From: an uncultured Candidatus Saccharibacteria bacterium
GTDB lineage: Bacteria > Patescibacteriota > Saccharimonadia > Saccharimonadales > Saccharimonadaceae
Length of the DNA: 64,000 bases
Direction: 5' to 3'
Assembly (NCBI GenBank): GCA_947425245.1
Contig: CANDYU010000001.1
Location: 63,028-127,027 of the forward strand
Shown here: positions 1 to 63,264 of the stretch, in pieces
Layout: the number at the start of each line of letters is the position of its first letter
Numbering within the stretch: the first letter of the stretch is position 1
The notes under the pieces: model-generated
What the model was told of the DNA's origin: nothing
Databases searched by the model: none
Seen by the model: only the letters and a program-made list of their open reading frames with translations
Position numbers and translations under genes: made by a program

Positions 1-641
1 TGGCGGAGAAACTCATCCACAGCGTGCGACGAGCCGGGGAGTTCGGGGTTGTTATAGTCGTGGACGAGCATGACTCCTTGGGGCGAGAGGCGTGGCGAGA
101 CTAAATGAAGACTGGTTTTAATGGAGCCATAGAGGTCACCATCAAGAAAAGCGAAGGCAATTTTAGAAGGGAGATCTTTATCAGTAAGTTCGTTGAACCA
201 GGCTTTTTTTACGATGATGTTATGAAGACCAGCTTTCTTGATCTTGGTGATTACTTCACGCTTAGTAACGAGGAGCTCGCCGGCCTGGAAGTTTTGGCCA
301 GCACCAGAGGAATCTTCGGAAGTCTTAGTGGGGAGACCGGCGAATGAGTCATAAATCCACAGTTTTTTAGCAGTTTTCCACTGATTTTCCACAGGTTTTC
401 CACAGGATGAAGAGGAGAGCTGATAATTCCCCAGTTCGGGGTCGGACGGATTAGAGGAGTCAGAGGGGCTGGACCTGGTGGTAGCTGGAAAATGTTGGGC
501 AAGCAGTTTACCGAGGAGGATTGAGGTGTCGCCTCGGTAACAGCCTAATTCGACATAGTCTCCTTCTATAGTAAGGGTTTTGGTGGCGAGTTCGAGGATA
601 ATTTGGGTCTCCTCGGTGGTGACTTGATCGTTTGTTGACAT
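1..641 (-). CDS. Class I SAM-dependent methyltransferase, TylF/MycF (macrocin-O-methyltransferase)-like; C-terminus lies beyond the window edge
   Basis: My own reverse-strand translation from the ATG at 639-641 is open to the window edge, so it is absent from the ORF track. Motifs: EGDYVELGCYRGDTS, LWIYDSFAGLP, AFAFLDGDLYGS, GVMLVHDYN. A low-complexity insert of about 45 aa carries three TTTTCCAC(A/T) repeats. Confidence 0.6.
   Translation of the reverse strand, partial: MSTNDQVTTEETQIILELATKTLTIEGDYVELGCYRGDTSILLGKLLAQHFPATTRSSPSDSSNPSDPELGNYQLSSSSCGKPVENQWKTAKKLWIYDSFAGLPTKTSEDSSGAGQNFQAGELLVTKREVITKIKKAGLHNIIVKKAWFNELTDKDLPSKIAFAFLDGDLYGSIKTSLHLVSPRLSPQGVMLVHDYNNPELPGSSHAVDEFLR
375..405. 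repeat. Three DnaA-box-like 9-mers (TTTTCCACT, TTTTCCACA, TTTTCCACA) at 11-bp spacing inside the methyltransferase ORF
   Basis: Direct reading: starts at 375, 386 and 397. The same 9-mer occurs in the dnaA flanks. Confidence 0.6.
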
Positions 642-10727: not shown

Positions 10728-10750
10728 TCCGCCCTTCGGGGCGGATTTTT
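10728..10750 (+). terminator. Rho-independent terminator after nusA
   Basis: TCCGCCC-ttcg-GGGCGGA followed by TTTTT. Confidence 0.75.
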
Positions 10751-10949
10751 GGTAGGTTTTTGGGAGTGGGGTTTTGGTAGATTTTTTGCAGGTTTTTGTC
10801 TGATTTGTCAATGTTGATAAAAGTTGGGTTTTATTTCGGAATGTTTACACAGATGTGGAAAAGTAGAAGAAGAGTTGTTCGGTTTTTGATGGTTTGGGAA
10901 ATTAAGGGTTGGACGGAAGTGACGTATTTTGGGTATTTTAGTATTGAAG

Positions 10950-11172
10950 CTTATCTAACCTAGTACGCCAGACAACGGATGGGGAAAGCACCCCAACGGT
11001 GATTTGGGCCGTTAGAAGGATGAATACTGTTCGAGAAAAAGAAATTGTATCCGGTTTGTCCTTGAGTGTTATCCTCATAAACAGATGCTGATGTCGCTGA
11101 CCAGTAGCGGCTATAGTTCCCCATCCGGCGTGTTGAGCCGTAATAATGAGAGACATACCCGCTACGGACGAT
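10950..11172 (-). repeat. Lectin-like (FISUMP C-terminal half) cassette E; promoterless with no start codon
   Basis: The hand-translated frame is open for 70 codons: IVRSGYVSHYYGSTRRMGNYSRYWSATSASVYEDNTQGQTGYNFFFSNSIHPSNGPNHRWGAFPIRCLAY*. It has the conserved head GTCCGTAGCGGG and the tail ...CCCCATCCGTTGTCTGGCGTACTAGGTTAGATAAG. Confidence 0.7.
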
Positions 11173-11524: not shown

Positions 11525-11586
11525 GGATTTAGAATTACCTCTGTTATTTTGGTTGATTTTTCGGTTAATTGAGCGATATTGATTAC

Positions 11587-11896
11587 TTCGTCCGTAGCGG
11601 ATATGTTTATCGCACTCACAGCTCCGTTCGATATTTCGGCCTCGGCGGTTATGGCTGGTCCAGTACTACTTCCTCAATATACTATGACGGAACAACTGGA
11701 TTAGCAGATTATTACCTCACTTTCTATGTTAGCGATGTCCGCCCATCAGACGGTCCATTCTATCGTTATTATGGTTTCCCCATCCGTTGTCCACGCTCCT
11801 GACGTCGCTGACAGAAGCTCGCTCTCTCGGAAATAAAAATGTAAACATTTTTGCTTCTCTCGAGAGCTCCTCAGTTGGCGTACTAGGTTAGATAAG
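11587..11896 (+). repeat. Lectin-like cassette B (diverged), head-to-head with D; its conserved tail is split by an 84-nt insertion
   Basis: FVRSGYVYRTHSSVRYFGLGGYGWSSTTSSIYYDGTTGLADYYLTFYVSDVRPSDGPFYRYYGFPIRCPRS* with the stop at 11800-11802. The tail remnant TGGCGTACTAGGTTAGATAAG resumes at 11876. Confidence 0.7.
11792..11875 (+). repeat. 84-nt hairpin-forming insertion inside the conserved cassette tail (between ..CCGTTGTC and TGGCGTAC..)
   Basis: An almost identical insertion occupies the same position in cassette G (63746-63828). It contains the nested hairpin AGCTCGCTCTCTCGGAA..AAAATG-taaa-CATTTT.. Confidence 0.65.
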
Positions 11897-12049: not shown

Positions 12050-12147
12050 TACTGTGGGGTTGTGTGATGGAAGATTTTAGCGTCTATAGTTAATCTGGAA
12101 AGCCAAAATGGAACCGCAATCGGGGGGGCGATGTACGGTTCCATTTT

Positions 12148-12223
12148 GGTTGCGGGAGTTGGATTTGAACCAACGACCTTTTGGTTATGAGCCAAACGAG
12201 CTACCAGGCTGCTCTATCCCGCG
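12148..12223 (-). tRNA. Initiator tRNA-fMet (anticodon CAT), CCA encoded
   Basis: The reverse complement reads CGCGGGATAGAGCAGCCTGGTAGCTCGTTTGGCTCATAACCAAAAGGTCGTTGGTTCAAATCCAACTCCCGCAACCA. It has the C1xA72 mismatch and is near-identical to E. coli tRNA-fMet as I recall it. Confidence 0.9.
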
Positions 12224-12445: not shown

Positions 12446-12671
12446 CTTATCTAACCTAGTACGCCAGACAACGAATGGGGAAAGCGTTCCAACGATGGTA
12501 CGGGCCGTTCGACGGGTTGACGCCACTAGCATTGAAATTGAGGTTGTAACCTGTCAAAGCAGCAGACCCATTGTTGTAAACGGGCGAAGCCGTAGTGGAC
12601 CAATTGTAGCCATTGATGCCAAGGTTCCGGGCAGAGCCGTTGTCGCGACGGACGACCCCGCTACGGACGAA
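12446..12671 (-). repeat. Lectin-like cassette A, the most Asn/adenine-rich copy (TR-like); its head overlaps the stop codon of the upstream membrane-protein gene
   Basis: FVRSGVVRRDNGSARNLGINGYNWSTTASPVYNNGSAALTGYNLNFNASGVNPSNGPYHRWNAFPIRCLAY*, with 12 AAY codons. It is the only copy with CCCCATTCGTTGTC in place of CCCCATCCGTTGTC in the tail. Confidence 0.7.
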
Positions 12672-14316
12672 GACTGTGCTTAGGGGATGCGAAAATGATG
12701 AGAAGAAGAGGTGGAAGGAGATAGATATGGAGGGCGTTAGGCAGGCCGGCGAAGAAGTTAAGAGTAACAAGATAGGCGAGAATGAGGCTAATGAGGAGAG
12801 GGAGGGCGGGGTTGGACCAGAAGAGGGATTTTGGTGGGCGATTGGAATGGCGAAGCGGGAGGGGCGAGAAAGCCACGATCAGTACAAAGATAATAATGAT
12901 AATTCCGATGAGGCCGAGCTCGAGGAGGAGGCTGAAAAATTGGTTTTGGACGATTTCTTTGGGGCTGGTGACGCGATCGGGAAAGCGGGCGTGCATGGCA
13001 CTGCCAGCACCACCTAGGCCAACGCCGAATAGGATACTGGCGGGGGTGTCAAGCCAAGTGTCAATAGCGGTACCAGTGAGATTGAGGCGAATGTTGGTTG
13101 ATTCGGCGACGTAGCCATCGAAAATCGCAGAATCGGTGGGGGTGGGGCCGGAGGAATCTGACGATTCGGGGGGATTTTCTAAGGAGCTGGATGAGTTCGT
13201 GGGCTCAGCGTCAGATTGAGCGGAGCTGCGAGGACGAAGATCAATAAGGCCAAGTGAGAGCTGGTGAAGGGACTTGGCGGCACCGGAAAGAAAAGAGTCG
13301 TGAGTTGGGCCGATGACGGTGAAAAAGCCTTGGACAGTAAGAGTAAAGAGGAAGGAGAGGACAGGGATAAGAATGAGGGTAAGGATGGGTCGGGCAAAGC
13401 GACGACGGTAGAGGAGAAAACAGGAAAAGGCAAAGAGAGCGATGGCATAGGCATAGATTGCTCCGCGAGAGAAAGTGAGGAAGAGGGTGGAGGAAAAGAA
13501 GAAGGTAATAAGGATAAGGAGGGCGGTAGTACGCTTGGAGGAGTGGTGGCAGGGGGAGACGAGGAGGTAGAGTGCCGTCAGGGTTGGGGCGAGGAGGAGG
13601 TTGCCCATGAATTGGGGCTCGATGGCAAAACCGGAGGGGTGCGGAAAGCCGAAGGACTGAGAAACACAACCGAGACAAAGAAGGCTGGATTCGCGACCGA
13701 TACCGGCGAGGTCGAGAAAGCACTGGATCCAGCAGAAGAGGCAGACGAGTGCACTAAAGAGAAAAAATGATTTTAAGAGGAGACGGGAGAAGTTTTTGGG
13801 GGGAGTGAGGAGGGGTAGAATGTAAATTAATGAGAAAATGGCAAAGAAGAGCAGCCAAATAATGCCGGCGGTGAGAATGGCTCGGAGGGGATTGGGCGAC
13901 CAGAAGGCGGAGATAGTGGCGTAGAACGGGAATAGGGAGAGGAGAAAGAACCGGCGATCAGAAATGCCAGTAAAATTGGTGGTGAAGAGTTTTTTGAGGC
14001 TGAGGAGGGAGGATCTGGCGATACTTTGAGGATTTTTAGTACTTTGAAGACTTTTTTTACTTTGAAGTTTATCGGCACTTTGAAGATTTTTGGTACTTTG
14101 AGACCGGTTGGGGTTTTGTAGGAAAAGTGCGATGAAACTGAGAAAATCGAAGATGACTAGCCAAATGAGCGGAAGAGAGAGCTCGAAGTTCATGGTTTGG
14201 TTGGAACCGAGGCGGATTATGGGATAGTAAGAAAAGAAGAGGACGCCCGGAAGAAGGAGAATCAGGAAGAGGATGGCTTTTCTAAGGATTGATGATGGTT
14301 CTTTGGTTGGTTTCAT
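12661..14316 (-). CDS. O-antigen ligase/polymerase-like (Wzy_C family) polytopic membrane protein
   Basis: 551 aa with at least 10 TM segments and a LTFSRGAIYAYAIALF-type Wzy_C signature. It lies in the glycan locus. Confidence 0.7.
   Translation of the reverse strand: MKPTKEPSSILRKAILFLILLLPGVLFFSYYPIIRLGSNQTMNFELSLPLIWLVIFDFLSFIALFLQNPNRSQSTKNLQSADKLQSKKSLQSTKNPQSIARSSLLSLKKLFTTNFTGISDRRFFLLSLFPFYATISAFWSPNPLRAILTAGIIWLLFFAIFSLIYILPLLTPPKNFSRLLLKSFFLFSALVCLFCWIQCFLDLAGIGRESSLLCLGCVSQSFGFPHPSGFAIEPQFMGNLLLAPTLTALYLLVSPCHHSSKRTTALLILITFFFSSTLFLTFSRGAIYAYAIALFAFSCFLLYRRRFARPILTLILIPVLSFLFTLTVQGFFTVIGPTHDSFLSGAAKSLHQLSLGLIDLRPRSSAQSDAEPTNSSSSLENPPESSDSSGPTPTDSAIFDGYVAESTNIRLNLTGTAIDTWLDTPASILFGVGLGGAGSAMHARFPDRVTSPKEIVQNQFFSLLLELGLIGIIIIIFVLIVAFSPLPLRHSNRPPKSLFWSNPALPLLISLILAYLVTLNFFAGLPNALHIYLLPPLLLIIFASPKHSLRP
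14022..14110. repeat. In-frame tandem repeat of about 18 bp, roughly 5 copies (TACTTTGAAG-core), inside the ligase-like gene
   Basis: Direct reading. It encodes QSTKNLQSADKLQSKKSLQSTKNPQS. Confidence 0.65.
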
Positions 14317-15686
14317 AGTTTCGTTCCCTCCTGGGGTTTAAGGTTTTGTGATTTTGATGATTGTTCGGAAAATGCGGAGACGAGTTGGGAGATGTTGGAG
14401 CGGAAATGTTTGGAGGAGAACTTCGTGGCGGTGCTTGAGACGGCGGAACGGCTGTAGTCGGAGGATTGGAAGGATTTAAGGGCTTTCGCGAGGGATTCGG
14501 GGGTTTGTTTGGCAAAAAAGAGGCCGTTCTTCCCTGGCTGGATGATGTCTTGGCTGCCGCCGGCTTTGTAGGCGATGACTGGGCAGCCGGCAGCAAGGGC
14601 TTCAACTGCAGCGATACCGAATGGTTCGAGGCTGGGGAAAATGTAGGCGGTGGCGGATTGGAGGTATTGCGAGAGCTCTTTAGCGTCGAGCCAAGGAATA
14701 AAATGAATAAGAGGGGTGGCGAGAGTCTCGAGATGATGATGTTCAGGGCCGTCACCAATGACGACTAGGCGTTTCTGGGCCAAAATGCAACCCTTAATAG
14801 CAAGGTCGACGCGTTTCCAGGTTACCTGGCGACAAGAAATGACGAAGTATGGCTCATTTCTAGAGACCGTCGTAGGAGTGGATTCGGTACTCCTGTGGAA
14901 AAGTTGTGGAAAAAATGTGGAAAAAATGTGGATTTTTGTGGAGAAATTCGGGTTTTTGGTGGATTTCTTGTGGATTTCTTGTGGATTTTTGTGGAGAAGT
15001 TCGGATTTTTGGTGGATTTCTTGTGGATTTCTTGTGGATTTTTGTGGAGAAGTTGTGGAAAAGGGTGAGAAACGACTAATATCAACAGGGGGAGCTATGA
15101 TTTTGGCGTCGCGGTGGTAAAACTGTTTAATCTGGGCGGCGGCGTAGCTAGAAATCGTCACGAATTGGTCGGGTCGCTGGGCGGCTCGGAAATCGGCCTG
15201 GCGAAGAGGCTTAATAAGGCATTTCAGGGCGAGGCGGACGAGAGGATTCAGAAAGCCGAAACCGGGATTTTTGATGTATTGGTCGTACATTTGCCAGTAA
15301 TATTGGGTGGGGACATGGCAATAACAGATGTGATAATTGGTCTTCACAGCCTTCGCCTCAGCACCCGTGACCGAGATGACTAGGTCGTAGTGGCTGAGGT
15401 CGAGATGCGAGAAATAGAGAGCCCGAAGAGGGCCAAGGAGCTTGCGAAGGCAGGCAGGAAAGAGGTTGAGCCAACCGGTGCGGACGATGGCTGTATTAAA
15501 CCAGGCGATTTTCTTGGGGCGATATTGAGAAGTGTAAATTGGGGCGTCGGGATACATCTGGTGTAGTTCGAGGAGGACTTTTTCGGCACCGCCAGGGGTA
15601 GTGAGCCAGTCACAGACGAGAGCGATGGAGGGGTCGGGGGTTGATTTTTTGGCAGTTTTGGTCGTTTTAGAGCGAGATTTGGACAT
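14313..15686 (-). CDS. Glycosyltransferase family 4 (GT-B fold) with a repeat-encoded insert in the interdomain linker
   Basis: N-terminal LVCDWLTTPGGAEKV and C-terminal EPFGIAAVEALAAGCPVIA motifs. The start overlaps the downstream gene (ATGA). Confidence 0.8.
   Translation of the reverse strand: MSKSRSKTTKTAKKSTPDPSIALVCDWLTTPGGAEKVLLELHQMYPDAPIYTSQYRPKKIAWFNTAIVRTGWLNLFPACLRKLLGPLRALYFSHLDLSHYDLVISVTGAEAKAVKTNYHICYCHVPTQYYWQMYDQYIKNPGFGFLNPLVRLALKCLIKPLRQADFRAAQRPDQFVTISSYAAAQIKQFYHRDAKIIAPPVDISRFSPFSTTSPQKSTRNPQEIHQKSELLHKNPQEIHKKSTKNPNFSTKIHIFSTFFPQLFHRSTESTPTTVSRNEPYFVISCRQVTWKRVDLAIKGCILAQKRLVVIGDGPEHHHLETLATPLIHFIPWLDAKELSQYLQSATAYIFPSLEPFGIAAVEALAAGCPVIAYKAGGSQDIIQPGKNGLFFAKQTPESLAKALKSFQSSDYSRSAVSSTATKFSSKHFRSNISQLVSAFSEQSSKSQNLKPQEGTKL
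14894..15062. repeat. Array of 14 same-orientation DnaA-box-like 9-mers ((T/G)GTGGA(A/T/G)(A/T)(A/T)) with 10-11 bp phasing, including a 53-bp higher-order duplication, in frame within the GT4 gene
   Basis: Box starts read at 14894, 14905, 14916, 14927, 14937, 14958, 14969, 14980, 14990, 15011, 15022, 15033, 15043 and 15054. Confidence 0.7.
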
Positions 15687-20951: not shown

Positions 20952-21941
20952 CTATTGCCAGAGATTTTCATAGGCCTTAGCAACCTCTTCTGGACTGCCT
21001 TCGGCGGCAACTTTGCCTTGTTCAATTAAGATAGCACGGTCGCAGAAGCGGCGGACATTCTCCATAGAGTGGGTAACGAGGATGACGGTTTGGCCGCCGT
21101 GGAGACTGGCGAAATAGTCGTTACATTTCCCCTGGAACTCGGCATCGCCAACCGCTAGAACTTCGTCAAGGATGAGAATATCACCACGTGCTCGGATGGC
21201 GATAGAAAAGGCGAGGCGGACTTGCATACCAGAAGAGTAGTTCTTTAGTTTGGCATCCATGAAAGGCTCTAGTTCGGCGAAATGAACGATTTCGTCGTAC
21301 ATGGCGTCCATTTCTTTGTTGGAGAACCCGAGTAGAGCACCGTTTAGATAGACATTTTCACGGCCGGTTAATTCGGGGTTAAAGCCAACGCCGAGCTCAA
21401 TGAACGGGACGAGGGTGCCGTTGACCTCAATTTTGCCGCTGTCGGGGATGTAGATTTGGGCGAGGAGCTTTAGTAAAGTAGACTTACCAGAGCCGTTGCG
21501 ACCGACAATGCCGACGAATTCGCCCTTTTTTACCTCAAAATCAATACCGCTCAACACCTTGTGTTCAGTGTAACCTTTAACGCCTTTGAGCCAATTAAAA
21601 ATGGCTTGTTTGAGGCCAGAGGCACGCTCAGTGGGGAGATGGAAGCTTTTATGGAGACCAGTAACTTTAATAGCGTTTTCGGAGTTTTGCACTGGATTTT
21701 TCGCAGGTTTTTGCACAGAATCTTGGGCTTTTTGCACAATATTCTCGGAGTTTTCCTCAGGATTTGCACAGGTAGATGATTGATTATCCACAGGATTTCC
21801 ACTAATTTTATCTTGTTTTGCACAAGTTTTACACAGATTTTCCACAGGTTCAGTAGAATTAATGGCTTGTTTGGCTATGCCTATTGATTTTTTTTGGTTT
21901 TTGTGATATAATGGAGATTTGGGGTGTTTTTTCTTAGACAT
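20952..21941 (-). CDS. Polysaccharide/teichoic-acid export ABC transporter ATP-binding protein (Wzt/TagH-like) with a repeat-encoded N-terminal extension of about 90 aa
   Basis: Walker A GRNGSGKST, signature YSSGMQVRL and Walker B ILILDE. Confidence 0.9.
   Translation of the reverse strand: MSKKKHPKSPLYHKNQKKSIGIAKQAINSTEPVENLCKTCAKQDKISGNPVDNQSSTCANPEENSENIVQKAQDSVQKPAKNPVQNSENAIKVTGLHKSFHLPTERASGLKQAIFNWLKGVKGYTEHKVLSGIDFEVKKGEFVGIVGRNGSGKSTLLKLLAQIYIPDSGKIEVNGTLVPFIELGVGFNPELTGRENVYLNGALLGFSNKEMDAMYDEIVHFAELEPFMDAKLKNYSSGMQVRLAFSIAIRARGDILILDEVLAVGDAEFQGKCNDYFASLHGGQTVILVTHSMENVRRFCDRAILIEQGKVAAEGSPEEVAKAYENLWQ
21685..21846. repeat. Array of about 10 DnaA-box-like 9-mers (TTTT(G/C)CACA variants, including a perfect TTATCCACA at 21784-21792), largely 11-bp phased, inside the N-terminal extension of the ABC ATPase
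   Basis: Boxes read at 21685, 21709, 21730, 21762, 21784, 21795, 21816, 21827 and 21838. Confidence 0.65.
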
Positions 21942-36989: not shown

Positions 36990-37037
36990 ATTAATTATCT
37001 TTCTCTATTAACAAATTCTTGTCCTAGTATACATTAG

Positions 37038-37190
37038 ATTTCCACTTTTTTCAAGGAGTTTTCCACATATTTAATAGGTATATCGTGCTTATGGTGGAAA
37101 AGTAGTTCCCTGTTTTGGATAGCTAAATTATAACATGTTTGAGGAAAACGGGGGAAACTGTGGAAAAGTCGGGAAAAGTTTGATATAATC
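37038..37190. promoter_or_regulatory. rpmH-dnaA intergenic DnaA-box cluster and dnaA promoter (possible oriC part 1)
   Basis: Boxes ATTTCCACT (37038), TTTTCCACA (37059), GGTGGAAAA (37093) and TGTGGAAAA (37159). A TGaTATAAT extended -10 lies at 37181-37189. Confidence 0.6.
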
Positions 37191-37219
37191 AGGGTAAGTT
37201 AAGGAGGAGTTAAGGGGTC

Positions 37220-38614
37220 ATGTTTGACGTGTGGAAGAATGTGCTGGCCGAAGTCGAGCAGACTATTCCACGCGAGCAATTTTTGACCTGGTTTACCGGT
37301 ACAGAACTGGCTGAGATTAACGATGGGGTAATTGTCGTAGGTGTACCGAATGTTTTTAAGATTAAACAGTTACAAGTAAAATATTCGGGAGTTCTAAAGG
37401 ATGCTTTTGAACATAATAATATTCCGGTAAAAGAGTTAAAATACGTCGTTCAGAGTAACACGAAGCAGAAGGTTAGGGCACGCGAGGTTCCAGTAAGGGA
37501 GGTTCCCTCTTCGCGACCAATCATATCAACTCCGACACATGTATCAAACTCGGTGTCGGATACTGTGTCAAGTTCGTCGGGATTGAATATCTTTAAGACT
37601 GGTTTAAATCCGAAATATAGCTTGGATAATTTTGTGATTGGGTCGAATAACGACCTAGCGGTTAGCGTAGCACGGAATATTATTGAAGCACCGGGAGAAA
37701 AGTATAATCCGTTTTTCCTGTACGGTGGTCCGGGGTTAGGTAAAACGCATCTAGTACAGGCAATTGGGAATGAATTATTAAGGAAGAATCCAAAAATGCG
37801 GATTTTTTATACGCCAGTCTCGGGGTTTTATTCGGATTTTATTAAGTCGGTTACCAATAAGAAAGGTGACGAGTTTCGACAAAAGTTCAAGAAACTTGAC
37901 GTATTGATTATTGATGACTTCCAGATGATTATGGGGAAAGATCAGTCACAGGTAGAGTTTTTTGATATTTTTAATGACTTATATGGGATCAATAAACAGA
38001 TTATCGTCACTTCGGATCGGTTACCAAATCAGATTAAATCGGTTGATGAGCGGTTAGCCTCGAGGTTGACTTGGGCAGGGGCGTATGATTTGCAGTTGCC
38101 GGGGTTTGAAGATAAATGTGCAATTCTAAAATCGAAGGCAGAGTTTATTGGGGCGGAGATTGAGGATGCGGCGATTGAGTATCTAGCAGAAAATGTGAGG
38201 ACTAATATCCGAGACCTTGAGGGTGAGTTTAATCATTTGCTGGCGATGGCGGACCTAAAGAATATGACTCCACTGGAAGTTATCAATGAGGGATATGTTA
38301 ATACGGCTAAAAATCCGCAAAACAAAACGGTTTCCCCAAAACAGGTGATTGATAAGGTAGCAAAGTTCTATCAAATGACACCTAAGGAAATGTGCAGTAA
38401 GAGTCGGGTGGCCCATATTAAGAATGCAAGGCAGGTGGCGATGTATATATTGTCAAAGGAGTTGGGGATGAGTACACCTAAGATTGCCCTAGAGGTTGGA
38501 GTGAAAGACCACACGACTGTGATGCATGGAGTGAGGAAAATTGAGGGGGATTTAAAATTAAACTTTGCACTGCGTGATCAGATCGCGGCGTTACGCGAGA
38601 AGCTGTATGCTTAG
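37220..38614 (+). CDS. dnaA: Chromosomal replication initiator DnaA
   Basis: 464 aa with Walker A GGPGLGKTHL and a C-terminal DnaA-box-binding domain (HTTVMHGVRKI). Confidence 0.97.
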   Translation: MFDVWKNVLAEVEQTIPREQFLTWFTGTELAEINDGVIVVGVPNVFKIKQLQVKYSGVLKDAFEHNNIPVKELKYVVQSNTKQKVRAREVPVREVPSSRPIISTPTHVSNSVSDTVSSSSGLNIFKTGLNPKYSLDNFVIGSNNDLAVSVARNIIEAPGEKYNPFFLYGGPGLGKTHLVQAIGNELLRKNPKMRIFYTPVSGFYSDFIKSVTNKKGDEFRQKFKKLDVLIIDDFQMIMGKDQSQVEFFDIFNDLYGINKQIIVTSDRLPNQIKSVDERLASRLTWAGAYDLQLPGFEDKCAILKSKAEFIGAEIEDAAIEYLAENVRTNIRDLEGEFNHLLAMADLKNMTPLEVINEGYVNTAKNPQNKTVSPKQVIDKVAKFYQMTPKEMCSKSRVAHIKNARQVAMYILSKELGMSTPKIALEVGVKDHTTVMHGVRKIEGDLKLNFALRDQIAALREKLYA

Positions 38615-38957
38615 TTGGATGGTGGATTTTTGTAAGAATGGTTGGGTTGATAGGGGTGATTTGACTTTTTTAAGTTCTAGTTTTTTAAAAACCGAACGCT
38701 TGTTCGGGTGGGTTGTGGATAACATGTGTGAAAGTGTGTGGGGAAATTCGTGGGAAACATGTGTGAAAGTTTCCACATGTGGCGGTTTTTATGAACTTTT
38801 GCACAAATTTTGGGGAAAAGTTTGGGTTATTCGCAGGATTGGTGGAAAGTTTTACGGGTGGATTTGCACAGTAAATTACCCCTGTTTTTATGGTAGTTTT
38901 GCACATTTTCCACAAAGCCTACTACTACAACTACTAAATATTTAGGAAGGAAGAAAA
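38615..38957. promoter_or_regulatory. dnaA-dnaN intergenic region with DnaA boxes (candidate oriC)
   Basis: A perfect TGTGGATAA at 38714-38722, GTTTCCACA at 38769, GGTGGAAAG at 38841 and TTTTCCACA at 38906, ending in an AT-rich stretch. ORF 38565..38945 merely reads through these boxes. Confidence 0.6.
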
Positions 38958-62769: not shown

Positions 62770-63264
62770 ATGAAAGGTACGAAGGGGTGTATAGTGCTGT
62801 TTGGGGGGATTTTGGTAGGGCTGTGTTTGGCGATTCTAGTTGGGTTGTTGGTCGTGGTGGGCGGTGGTGCGGATGAGCGAGGTAAAGAATTTCGTTTGGA
62901 GAGTAGGTTGTATGGTACGGGAGAGCTGATTGAGATTTCGGGGGAGGAATATATGGAGATGGTCGGTCGGGGCGAAAGCTTTTTGGTAGTGGCTAGGATG
63001 GAAGTTTGCCCGGCGGAGTTTCCGGTAACGGAGACAGTTAAGAGTTTTGCGGTGAAAGAGGGAGTGAAGGTTTATTCTTTGAAAGAGACGGAGTTTAAGA
63101 AAACGGATCTGGGGGAGAAGGTAAAATATTTACCATCGGTTATTGTGGTGAGGGATGGGGGGATAGCGGATTTTTTGGATGCGGAAGCGGATGAGGATTT
63201 GGGGGCGTATAAGAGTGAGGCGGAGCTTTTAGAGTGGTTGAGGAAGGTTGGAGTTGAGATTTAG
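62770..63264 (+). CDS. Membrane-anchored protein, possibly a thioredoxin-like fold (low confidence)
   Basis: N-terminal TM segment, 164 aa, adjacent to the previous gene (1 nt between its stop and this start). Confidence 0.35.
   Translation: MKGTKGCIVLFGGILVGLCLAILVGLLVVVGGGADERGKEFRLESRLYGTGELIEISGEEYMEMVGRGESFLVVARMEVCPAEFPVTETVKSFAVKEGVKVYSLKETEFKKTDLGEKVKYLPSVIVVRDGGIADFLDAEADEDLGAYKSEAELLEWLRKVGVEI

Follow-up and report, generated by a model that had tools for sequence, protein, structure and literature searches.

A helically phased, head-to-tail array of DnaA-box-type sites within the coding sequence of a GT4 glycosyltransferase gene of Candidatus Saccharibacteria

RESULTS

An array of phased units in a glycosyltransferase gene

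The 64,000-nucleotide stretch analysed here (positions 63,028 to 127,027 of contig CANDYU010000001.1, assembly GCA_947425245.1; hereafter the window) comes from an uncultured Candidatus Saccharibacteria bacterium and carries, inside the gene of a GT4 glycosyltransferase, a tandem array of 9-mers of the type bound by the replication initiator DnaA. The envelope-polysaccharide gene cluster to which this gene belongs has at least two more arrays of the same kind. The following features lie at its centre.

14313..15686, minus strand: GT4 (GT-B fold) glycosyltransferase gene, 457 aa, in which the array makes up a disordered interdomain linker
14894..15062, minus strand: head-to-tail array of 16 phased units, 14 with the TCCAC core, reading as TTTTCCACA-type DnaA boxes on the coding strand
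14927..15054: 53-bp higher-order repeat, equal to five helical turns, 2.4 copies at 97% (Tandem Repeats Finder)

Read over 14880–15075, the array (span 14894–15064) consists of 16 consecutive units in a single orientation and at a pitch of 10–11 bp, which start at 14894, 14905, 14916, 14927, 14937, 14947, 14958, 14969, 14980, 14990, 15000, 15011, 15022, 15033, 15043 and 15054. The GTGGA core is present in 14 of them, as TGTGGAAAA (four times), TGTGGATTT (five), GGTGGATTT (two) and TGTGGAGAA (three), and the other two units are degenerate (TTCGGG at 14947, TTCGGA at 15000). The original prediction, made from the sequence without database searches, had described 14 same-orientation 9-mers spaced by 10–11 bp and a 53-bp duplication, and both are found; Tandem Repeats Finder also reports periods of 11 and 21, and at offset 53 the longest exact repeat is 49 bp. 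When the 14 units are compared with the consensus TTWTNCACA, four match perfectly, three have one mismatch and seven have two or three (as AAATCCACA and AAATCCACC do). Three of the perfect boxes stand at the 3' end (14894–14924) and the fourth caps the 5' end (15054). The motif TGTGGAWWW occurs 24 times in the window, nine of these inside the 170 bp occupied by the GT4 array, against 6.05 ± 2.26 occurrences in shuffled sequences, and none of 100 shuffles reaches 24.

The array is in frame and encodes residues ~208–265 of the protein. Since the Pfam match of the GT4 N-terminal domain (residues 32–205) ends before this part and Glycos_transf_1 (276–422) begins after it, what the array encodes is the interdomain linker, as had been predicted. 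An AlphaFold model based on 25 orthologues agrees: residues 212–270 have a predicted local distance difference test score (pLDDT) below 50 and no secondary structure, and on either side of them stand two confident Rossmann-like domains with pLDDT of ~90. S, T, P and Q abound in the linker peptide.

The constraint acts on DNA and not on the peptide

A scan with one genome per species returned 80 loci, all from Candidatus Saccharibacteria (Nanosyncoccus/Nanosyncoccaceae-like) metagenome-assembled genomes of mouse, ruminant and other gut samples; the survey described below is based on 273 phased CCAC units in 33 arrays from 80 sequences. A logo anchored only on the phased CCAC reads T76% T82% W91% T97% CCAC A66% R89% and has near-zero information in the spacers; it equals TTWTNCACA, which identifies the motif as the canonical DnaA box. 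Same-strand TCCACA shows spacing peaks at 11–12, 21–22, 32–33, 42–43 and 53–54 bp, a period of ~10.7 bp, and no helical spacing peaks were seen for five control hexamers. Among tandem repeats in 1.4 Mb of these genomes, the box core is present in 24 of the 36 with period 11, in 17 of 30 with period 21, in 4 of 8 with period 22 and in 3 of 3 with each of the periods 32 and 53, and in none with periods of 9, 10, 13, 14, 16 or 18–20.

The arrays are also polar. In box orientation, perfect TTWTCCACAR makes up 73% of the 3'-terminal boxes as against 23% of the first and 34% of the internal ones, and along the array the mean number of mismatches declines, from 1.25 to 0.64. Such polarity would be expected if DnaA nucleated at a strong site and spread to weaker ones, and equally if the array grew from one end.

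Box starts fall into frames 0, 2 and 1 in a ratio of 82:46:18. At the peptide level the linkers mix FST/LST, FPQ/YPQ/NPQ and FHK/IHK, which are the three frames of TT(T/A)TCCACA(R), and an inverted box is translated as PVEN, VDK or LWK. Codon choice inside the inserts is biased towards the box when compared with the sequence outside them (Ser TCC 50% versus 15%, Pro CCA 64% versus 18%, Thr ACA 38% versus 12%, His CAC 78% versus 40%, Leu TTA 56% versus 13%). Because three frames, both orientations and box-biased codons are in use, the constraint on the arrays acts on DNA and not on the peptide, and a peptide-level repeat was rejected. A protein search with a synthetic array-encoded peptide gave no matches. 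Matches with a 12-bp period in L178 and L199 (PVEK/VEKT), by contrast, are tetrapeptide repeats of the ordinary in-frame sort.

Each of the 33 arrays keeps the frame of a long open reading frame (ORF), and the arrays occupy equivalent protein positions across species. Between array-bearing species the flanking coding DNA is only 65–70% identical and the boxes are still canonical. Neutral repeats would have decayed at this distance, which rules out a passively decaying satellite, and the boxes are kept canonical either by selection or by a continuing generating process. Orientation is fixed for each gene in this survey, with boxes on the coding strand in GT4 and on the other strand in Wzy, the ABC ATPase and the methyltransferase of the window; the exceptions are a few GT4 orthologues with inverted (PVEN-type) inserts. 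We also noticed that P0135, from the 90%-identity cluster of the ABC ATPase at 20952–21941, has a shorter N-terminal extension in which the boxes are seemingly reversed (QVFHK, IHC, VHT), so array orientation can flip over a short evolutionary distance.

Homologues of the GT4 protein number in the thousands; the best 120 are 47–71% identical and 356–736 aa long, the difference in length lying almost wholly in the linker. Orthologues without the insert, with which a comparison had been proposed, exist and measure 356–380 aa with an 18-residue linker. In the closer clade (L006–L038), arrays of up to 20 boxes occupy the GT4 linker in ~17 species, most of which have a second array 1.5–2.5 kb downstream, in the loop of a Wzy-like protein, and some an array in the ABC ATPase.

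Sister arrays in the envelope-polysaccharide cluster

The sister arrays in the same gene cluster, like the clade-wide occurrence, were overlooked in the original prediction. They and their host genes are as follows.

1..641, minus strand: TylF-type O-methyltransferase gene, cut by the window end, host of the second array
353..404, plus strand: second array, four phased boxes (AAATCCACA, TTTTCCACT and TTTTCCACA twice), opposite to the coding strand
12661..14316, minus strand: Wzy/O-antigen-ligase-like gene, whose loop is short and whose boxes are decayed in the window
20952..21941, minus strand: ABC-transporter ATPase gene, ABC_tran from residue 130, with the third array in residues ~30–87
21685..21846, plus strand: third array, 10 boxes with at most one mismatch, six of them perfect, spaced by 11, 21 or 22 bp

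The second array is in frame and lies within a loop insert of the methyltransferase ('CGKPVENQWKTAKK'; the complete gene, found in L326, encodes 232 aa). The third encodes an N-terminal extension of the ATPase, and its perfect boxes include TTATCCACA, TTTTGCACA and TTTTACACA. Both repeat the TT(T/A)TCCACA(G/A) unit of the GT4 array in the opposite orientation, on the plus strand. In relatives the Wzy loop after 'GLIDLRP' holds a reverse-orientation array (for example 'SVENSSKNVENPSKDCAKPVDK' in L020). Boxes with at most one mismatch number 7 in 177 bp in GT4, 3 in 66 bp in the methyltransferase and 10 in 186 bp in the ABC ATPase. All three array hosts belong to the envelope-polysaccharide cluster at 0–24 kb, which also has Bac_transf, GT2, UDP-galactopyranose mutase, Wzy and ABC-2 genes. 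The 64 kb contain 27 perfect TTWTNCACA boxes, of which 18 are in the three arrays and the two spacers flanking dnaA. In the 5.6 kb to the left of the window there are no more arrays and no flip of the skew.

Several other features of this region were noted. The G+C content drops at ~24000, from 0.47–0.50 over the polysaccharide cluster with all the arrays (0–24 kb) to 0.36–0.45 (24–47 kb). The Wzy-like protein has 'QSTKNLQSADKLQSKKSLQSTKNPQS' in an N-terminal loop, encoded at 14022–14101 by 4.4 in-frame copies of an 18-bp unit that lacks the DnaA-box core. Its strain variants have 551 or 545 aa, and the six-residue difference is located in the other loop, which bears box arrays in relatives. 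On the 3' side of the nusA terminator, 10740–10862 holds ~4.5 degenerate copies of an 11-bp unit, TTTTTGGTAGG, and after them TGTTTACACAG and ATGTGGAAAAG, perhaps what is left of an intergenic array. Where long ORFs are otherwise absent, three short ones, 10960–11124 (minus), 11569–11802 (plus) and 12456–12770 (minus), end almost identically (...GAFPIRCLAY, ...GFPIRCPRS, ...NAFPIRCLAY), and the peptide 'SPSVVWRTRLDK' also recurs. They resemble either fragments of a gene present several times or a small family of paralogues flanking tRNA-Met (12147–12223). An exact look-up of ORF 677–2122 returned no record.

dnaA and an oriC-like spacer in the same window

The same 9-mers were predicted to flank dnaA, and they do: TTTTCCACA is found at 37059, 37159 and 38906 and TTATCCACA at 38714. 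The features of this region are listed here.

36993..37219: rpmH-dnaA spacer with four boxes, two of them perfect
37220..38614, plus strand: dnaA; domain IV keeps R399, P423, D433, H434, T435 and H439 (E. coli numbering)
38615..38957: oriC-like dnaA-dnaN spacer, 10 boxes with at most one mismatch

In the alignment with the E. coli domain IV crystal construct 1J1V, all six base-contact residues are identical in the DnaA of the window. The dnaA-dnaN spacer ends in a tandem TTTTGCACA-TTTTCCACA (38897–38914), the short G+C step AAGCC, the DnaA-trio-like (CTA)n sequence CTACTACTACAACTACTA (38919–36) and then DNA with 70% A+T. This order matches the layout of the B. subtilis origin, with box, GC-cluster, DnaA-trio and unwinding element. 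The GT4 array lies 24 kb from the spacer, all three arrays lie 17–38 kb from it, and the GT4 gene is 21.5 kb from dnaA (6–9 kb in L058 and L061). The claim that the array is denser in boxes than the presumed origin stands, as boxes with at most one mismatch number 4.0 per 100 bp in the GT4 array, as against 2.9 for the dnaA-dnaN spacer and 1.8 for the region upstream of dnaA.

Copy-number alleles of the 53-bp unit

The copy-number variation that was to be looked for in the 53-bp unit exists. A two-copy, in-frame allele of the GT4 array is identical in five independent assemblies of near-identical strains (L328–L332), and an allele lacking one 53-bp unit is found in L002 (metaSPAdes) and in L003 and L004 (Logan). 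Without this unit the frame is shifted and GT4 falls into two ORFs, of 257 and 156 aa. In other samples, Logan k=31 contigs break off within the GT4 array where the 49-bp exact repeat begins; as Logan breaks at the two-copy form and does not collapse it, the one-copy contigs are probably real alleles, and an assembly error is unlikely. The methyltransferase array is invariant in at least 89 contigs and that of the ABC ATPase in at least 65. We also observed that L333 and L334 (locus end 4586) and seven similar contigs end inside the GT4 array, and that the intact GT4 protein is on record in six contigs, as against 44–67 for its neighbours, which the ending of Logan contigs in the array explains.

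In L005 (5780–5870) a patch of ~88 nt stands in place of the GT4 array's end, and GT4 is truncated at 284 aa. The right half of the patch is the inverted methyltransferase array region (cf. 385–436 of the window), with 1–2 nt of homology at the junction, so that it is either a template switch between arrays or an artefact of scaffolding or gap filling. Instability of the GT4 array may be a by-product of a binding array.

Phased arrays in other collections

When metagenome and viral contigs were scanned for three DnaA boxes 11–12 bp apart, at least 120 loci were obtained in each collection. Among the matches listed, arrays have 3–8 boxes and ~82% lie outside ORFs of at least 200 aa; those inspected all end in TTTTCCACAG(G). 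Head-to-tail boxes in helical phase are therefore widespread, and what is unusual in the Saccharibacteria arrays is their length (14–20 boxes versus 3–8 elsewhere among the matches listed) and their coding location.

These scans also brought up phage-like ORFs with embedded DnaA boxes ('FSTAFPQVFHSFSTTFPQ'). In L204 (811–863), L274 (8288–8340) and L086 (123–175, GC 0.66), phage- or prophage-like ORFs of 366–508 aa without a Pfam match have an in-frame run of five boxes translated as 'TFSTAFPQVFHSFSTTFPQ', recalling the origins embedded in phage replication genes. An APH-family phosphotransferase ORF of 356 aa in the metagenome locus L184 (1040–1092, GC 0.52) has an in-frame five-box array with 11-bp spacing ('VEKLWKSCGKVVEKLWKK'), so coding-embedded arrays are not restricted to envelope genes.

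DISCUSSION

A probable DnaA-binding locus in coding DNA

The array constrained at the level of DNA is helically phased, polar and composed of canonical DnaA boxes; it is conserved in place within the clade, translated as a disordered linker and prone to copy-number change that shifts the frame. Judged by its sequence, the GT4 array is a probable site of DnaA binding built into DNA that codes for protein. The explanation we favour, with moderate confidence, is that it is a non-origin DnaA-box cluster that would act as an oriC-proximal sink or scaffold for DnaA, of the kind represented by E. coli datA and the DnaA-box clusters (DBCs) of B. subtilis. Conservation at the DNA level in ~17 species, the use of three frames and both orientations and the helical phasing speak for titration or a scaffold, as do the base-contact residues retained by the cognate DnaA and the oriC-like spacer located 24 kb away. 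Same-orientation boxes are known to support head-to-tail oligomers of ATP-DnaA (PMC10380432), and in B. subtilis it is clusters of boxes close to oriC that restrain initiation (PMC3245932). We suppose that domain IV of DnaA would bind the perfect TTTTCCACA boxes at the array ends and that, with head-to-tail boxes one or two helical turns apart, DnaA could then fill weaker ones (e.g. AAATCCACA and TTCTCCACA units) cooperatively. The array would be tolerated through its translation as a disordered interdomain linker, the box being free of stops in any frame on the strand used. Its turnover would be fast between species, and within a species loss of one 53-bp unit would produce frameshift null alleles. 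A locus similar to datA or DARS had been suggested by the original prediction; the datA-like part is what we favour, and the DARS-like part we reject, as all 14–16 units have the same orientation and no head-to-head pair is present, DnaA boxes I and II of DARS being head-to-head and essential (PMC10380432).

A number of observations weigh against the sink or scaffold. The repeat unit is a DnaA-box-type 9-mer, as predicted, but only 7 of the 14 units of the GT4 array are within one mismatch of TTWTNCACA. The B. subtilis clusters and datA are described as intergenic or non-coding, which leaves the coding location without a direct precedent, and self-amplification could keep the boxes without any benefit for the cell. 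Distant relatives (ruminant Nanosyncoccus, L039–L085) are mostly array-free, have the 18-residue linker and manage without. As the survey covers sampled loci, the arrays may also occur away from the origin region or from envelope genes. Finally, no sign change of the GC skew is seen at the dnaA-dnaN spacer: the skew is strongly positive (0.06–0.5) throughout the window, before as well as after the oriC-like spacer and independently of gene strand, so it is sequence motifs that support the term oriC-proximal. In L058 the sign does change at dnaA-dnaN. The orientation of the GT4 cluster relative to dnaA is inverted between the window and L058, and a recent rearrangement near the origin would explain the skew anomaly; the literature searched on GC skew and replication origins of Saccharibacteria offered no explanation for the absent switch.

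The arrays themselves are not replication origins. There is no unwinding element, DnaA-trio or skew switch at them, and in the GT4-centred loci of relatives the skew is positive as well; the flanks of the GT4 array have 48–50% A+T and no adjacent [AT] run of eight or more.

Other explanations

The explanations considered here, the favoured one included, are not mutually exclusive. It is possible, if less than probable, that the arrays are a self-expanding minisatellite of DnaA boxes without cellular function, in which slippage or template switching multiplies box-containing units (11, 21 or 53 bp long), fork stalling at bound DnaA possibly favours the amplification, gene conversion spreads the product between arrays, and arrays persist only in tolerant disordered loops. 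Very recent duplications such as that of the 53-bp unit (97% identity), higher-order repeats of 53/54 bp and 32 bp that occur independently in L023, L035, L006 and L010, and array lengths that vary strongly between species (GT4 of 356–736 aa) are all in keeping with such a process, as are the best boxes gathered at one end, which fits one-ended growth, the methyltransferase-array patch within the GT4 array of L005, the existence of array-free relatives and the box-free low-complexity repeats in loops of the same proteins (e.g. 14022–14101). However, many arrays combine unrelated 12–13 bp spacers with canonical, helically phased 9-mers, which is not what amplification of whole units predicts. 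Host positions and gene-relative orientation (checked for the GT4, Wzy and window methyltransferase arrays) are kept at 65–70% coding-DNA identity, and the choice of the initiator's exact binding site is left unexplained unless DnaA participates. The iteron-like satellite tolerated in loops, another suggestion of the original prediction, is possible as the generating process, not as a passively decaying repeat. A contingency locus, in which slippage of 11- or 53-bp units toggles envelope-glycan genes and varies the surface under pressure from phages or the host, is in our view unlikely. Its strength lies in the alleles: neither unit is a multiple of three, L002 (metaSPAdes), L003 and L004 (Logan) each independently lack exactly one 53-bp unit and have a split GT4, five other assemblies of close strains (L328–L332) have the two-copy in-frame form, the one-copy alleles are probably real given that Logan k=31 contigs usually break at two copies, and the hosts (GT4, Wzy, ABC exporter, methyltransferase) are surface-polysaccharide genes. 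Still, the units are heterogeneous and form no long, perfect, homogeneous tract, the ABC-ATPase and methyltransferase arrays do not vary over at least 65 and at least 89 contigs, all 33 species-representative arrays are in frame, switching back on needs a re-duplication, and a canonical DnaA box in helical phase across species would be left without explanation.

Equally improbable in our estimate is DnaA-dependent transcriptional control, with intragenic DnaA as a roadblock or regulator coupling envelope-polysaccharide synthesis to the replication cycle. In E. coli, a complex of DnaA with a dnaA box can block RNA polymerase, and the arrays are placed in three or four genes of one envelope cluster; in B. 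subtilis, DnaA is a transcription factor at box clusters (PMC3245932). Yet boxes are oriented in GT4, relative to transcription, opposite to those in Wzy, the ABC ATPase and the methyltransferase, array-free relatives keep the same gene cluster, and a search of the GT4 array for an internal promoter or terminator found no such site. The least probable alternative, which we hardly credit, is that the motif has nothing to do with DnaA and acts in the protein as a linker motif, in RNA, in DNA uptake or in binding a different DNA-binding protein. The S/T/P/Q-rich peptide does resemble many flexible linkers, but three frames and both orientations yield unrelated peptides. A structured RNA was rejected, the array mRNA being unstructured (fold z-score of +0.59) and Rfam finding only a tRNA in the window, and so was a dispersed uptake-type motif, since five short spots account for 18 of the 27 perfect boxes. 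The identical 9-mers, moreover, mark the flanks of dnaA.

What the arrays may mean

A wider proposal goes beyond the DnaA sink or scaffold, and we offer it only tentatively, doubtful as it is. Initiator-binding platforms moved into coding DNA, as long phased box arrays in the disordered linkers of envelope-glycan enzymes, might be the main DnaA buffer near the origin and link replication control to surface genes; DnaA occupancy, fork passage and repeat instability might tie replication to the integrity or expression of these genes, and selection at the DNA level might override the peptide sequence in what would be a coding and regulatory element at once. In the literature searched we found no paper on DnaA boxes in Saccharibacteria or Patescibacteria and none on coding-embedded DnaA-box arrays. 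What is new here is a non-origin DnaA-box cluster that is embedded in coding sequence, strictly phased, very long and evolutionarily fluid.

If DnaA binds them, no DnaA-box clusters kept within translated sequence would have been known before these, which would also be the longest head-to-tail arrays among the matches listed in our scans. They would then give a handle on the control of replication initiation in ultra-small episymbionts (Saccharibacteria/Candidate Phyla Radiation), for which the literature searched offered none, and a natural case of DNA-level selection that sets a linker sequence through all three reading frames. A link would also exist between initiator sites, unstable repeats and the loss-of-function alleles of surface-glycan genes. 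On the practical side, the arrays break short-read assemblies (Logan contigs end there), and annotators will meet them as low-complexity-looking 'FST/FPQ/FHK' or 'PVEN' inserts.

Comparison with known systems

Contingency loci of Haemophilus, Neisseria and Campylobacter have long perfect tracts of arbitrary sequence that is not conserved between species. The arrays share with them the location in surface-polysaccharide genes, a unit that is not a multiple of three and the frameshift alleles of close strains; they differ in that the units are heterogeneous and, as far as the sequence tells, keep a specific protein-binding motif. Closer in layout is the origin of phage lambda, where initiator-binding repeats lie in frame in the linker-coding part of the O gene. 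The lambda repeats bind the protein of that same gene and belong to a working origin with an A+T-rich region, whereas the array hosts here are envelope enzymes unrelated to replication.

The low-affinity arrays of E. coli oriC, in its left and right DnaA-oligomerisation regions, are also made of same-orientation boxes on which head-to-tail oligomers grow from a strong end box (PMC10380432), and the polarity and one-turn spacing of the GT4 array resemble them. Unlike the GT4 array, which has no A+T-rich element or DnaA-trio, they have 5–6 boxes each, are paired in opposite orientation and adjoin the unwinding element. With E. coli datA the array has in common that it would be a non-origin, oriC-near locus that binds DnaA and lowers initiation potential, which is the function of datA (PMC10380432) and a sequence-based expectation here. 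datA consists of three essential boxes and one IHF site at fixed spacing, so the number and arrangement of boxes differ, and there is no sequence homology; the IHF consensus WATCAANNNNTTR, which may not apply to this host, does not occur in 14600–15400 or near the other arrays.

The nearest relatives in kind appear to be the DBCs of B. subtilis (Okumura et al. 2012, PMC3245932), in which canonical boxes are clustered away from the unwinding site, several clusters per genome. Most DBCs are oriC-proximal and have been proposed to restrain initiation in bacteria without SeqA and Hda (PMC3245932). Here, too, several consensus boxes are clustered outside the unwinding region. DBCs, however, are intergenic and of mixed orientation, whereas the Saccharibacteria arrays, all 33 of them inside ORFs, are head-to-tail, phased, up to 20 boxes long, translated and variable in length.

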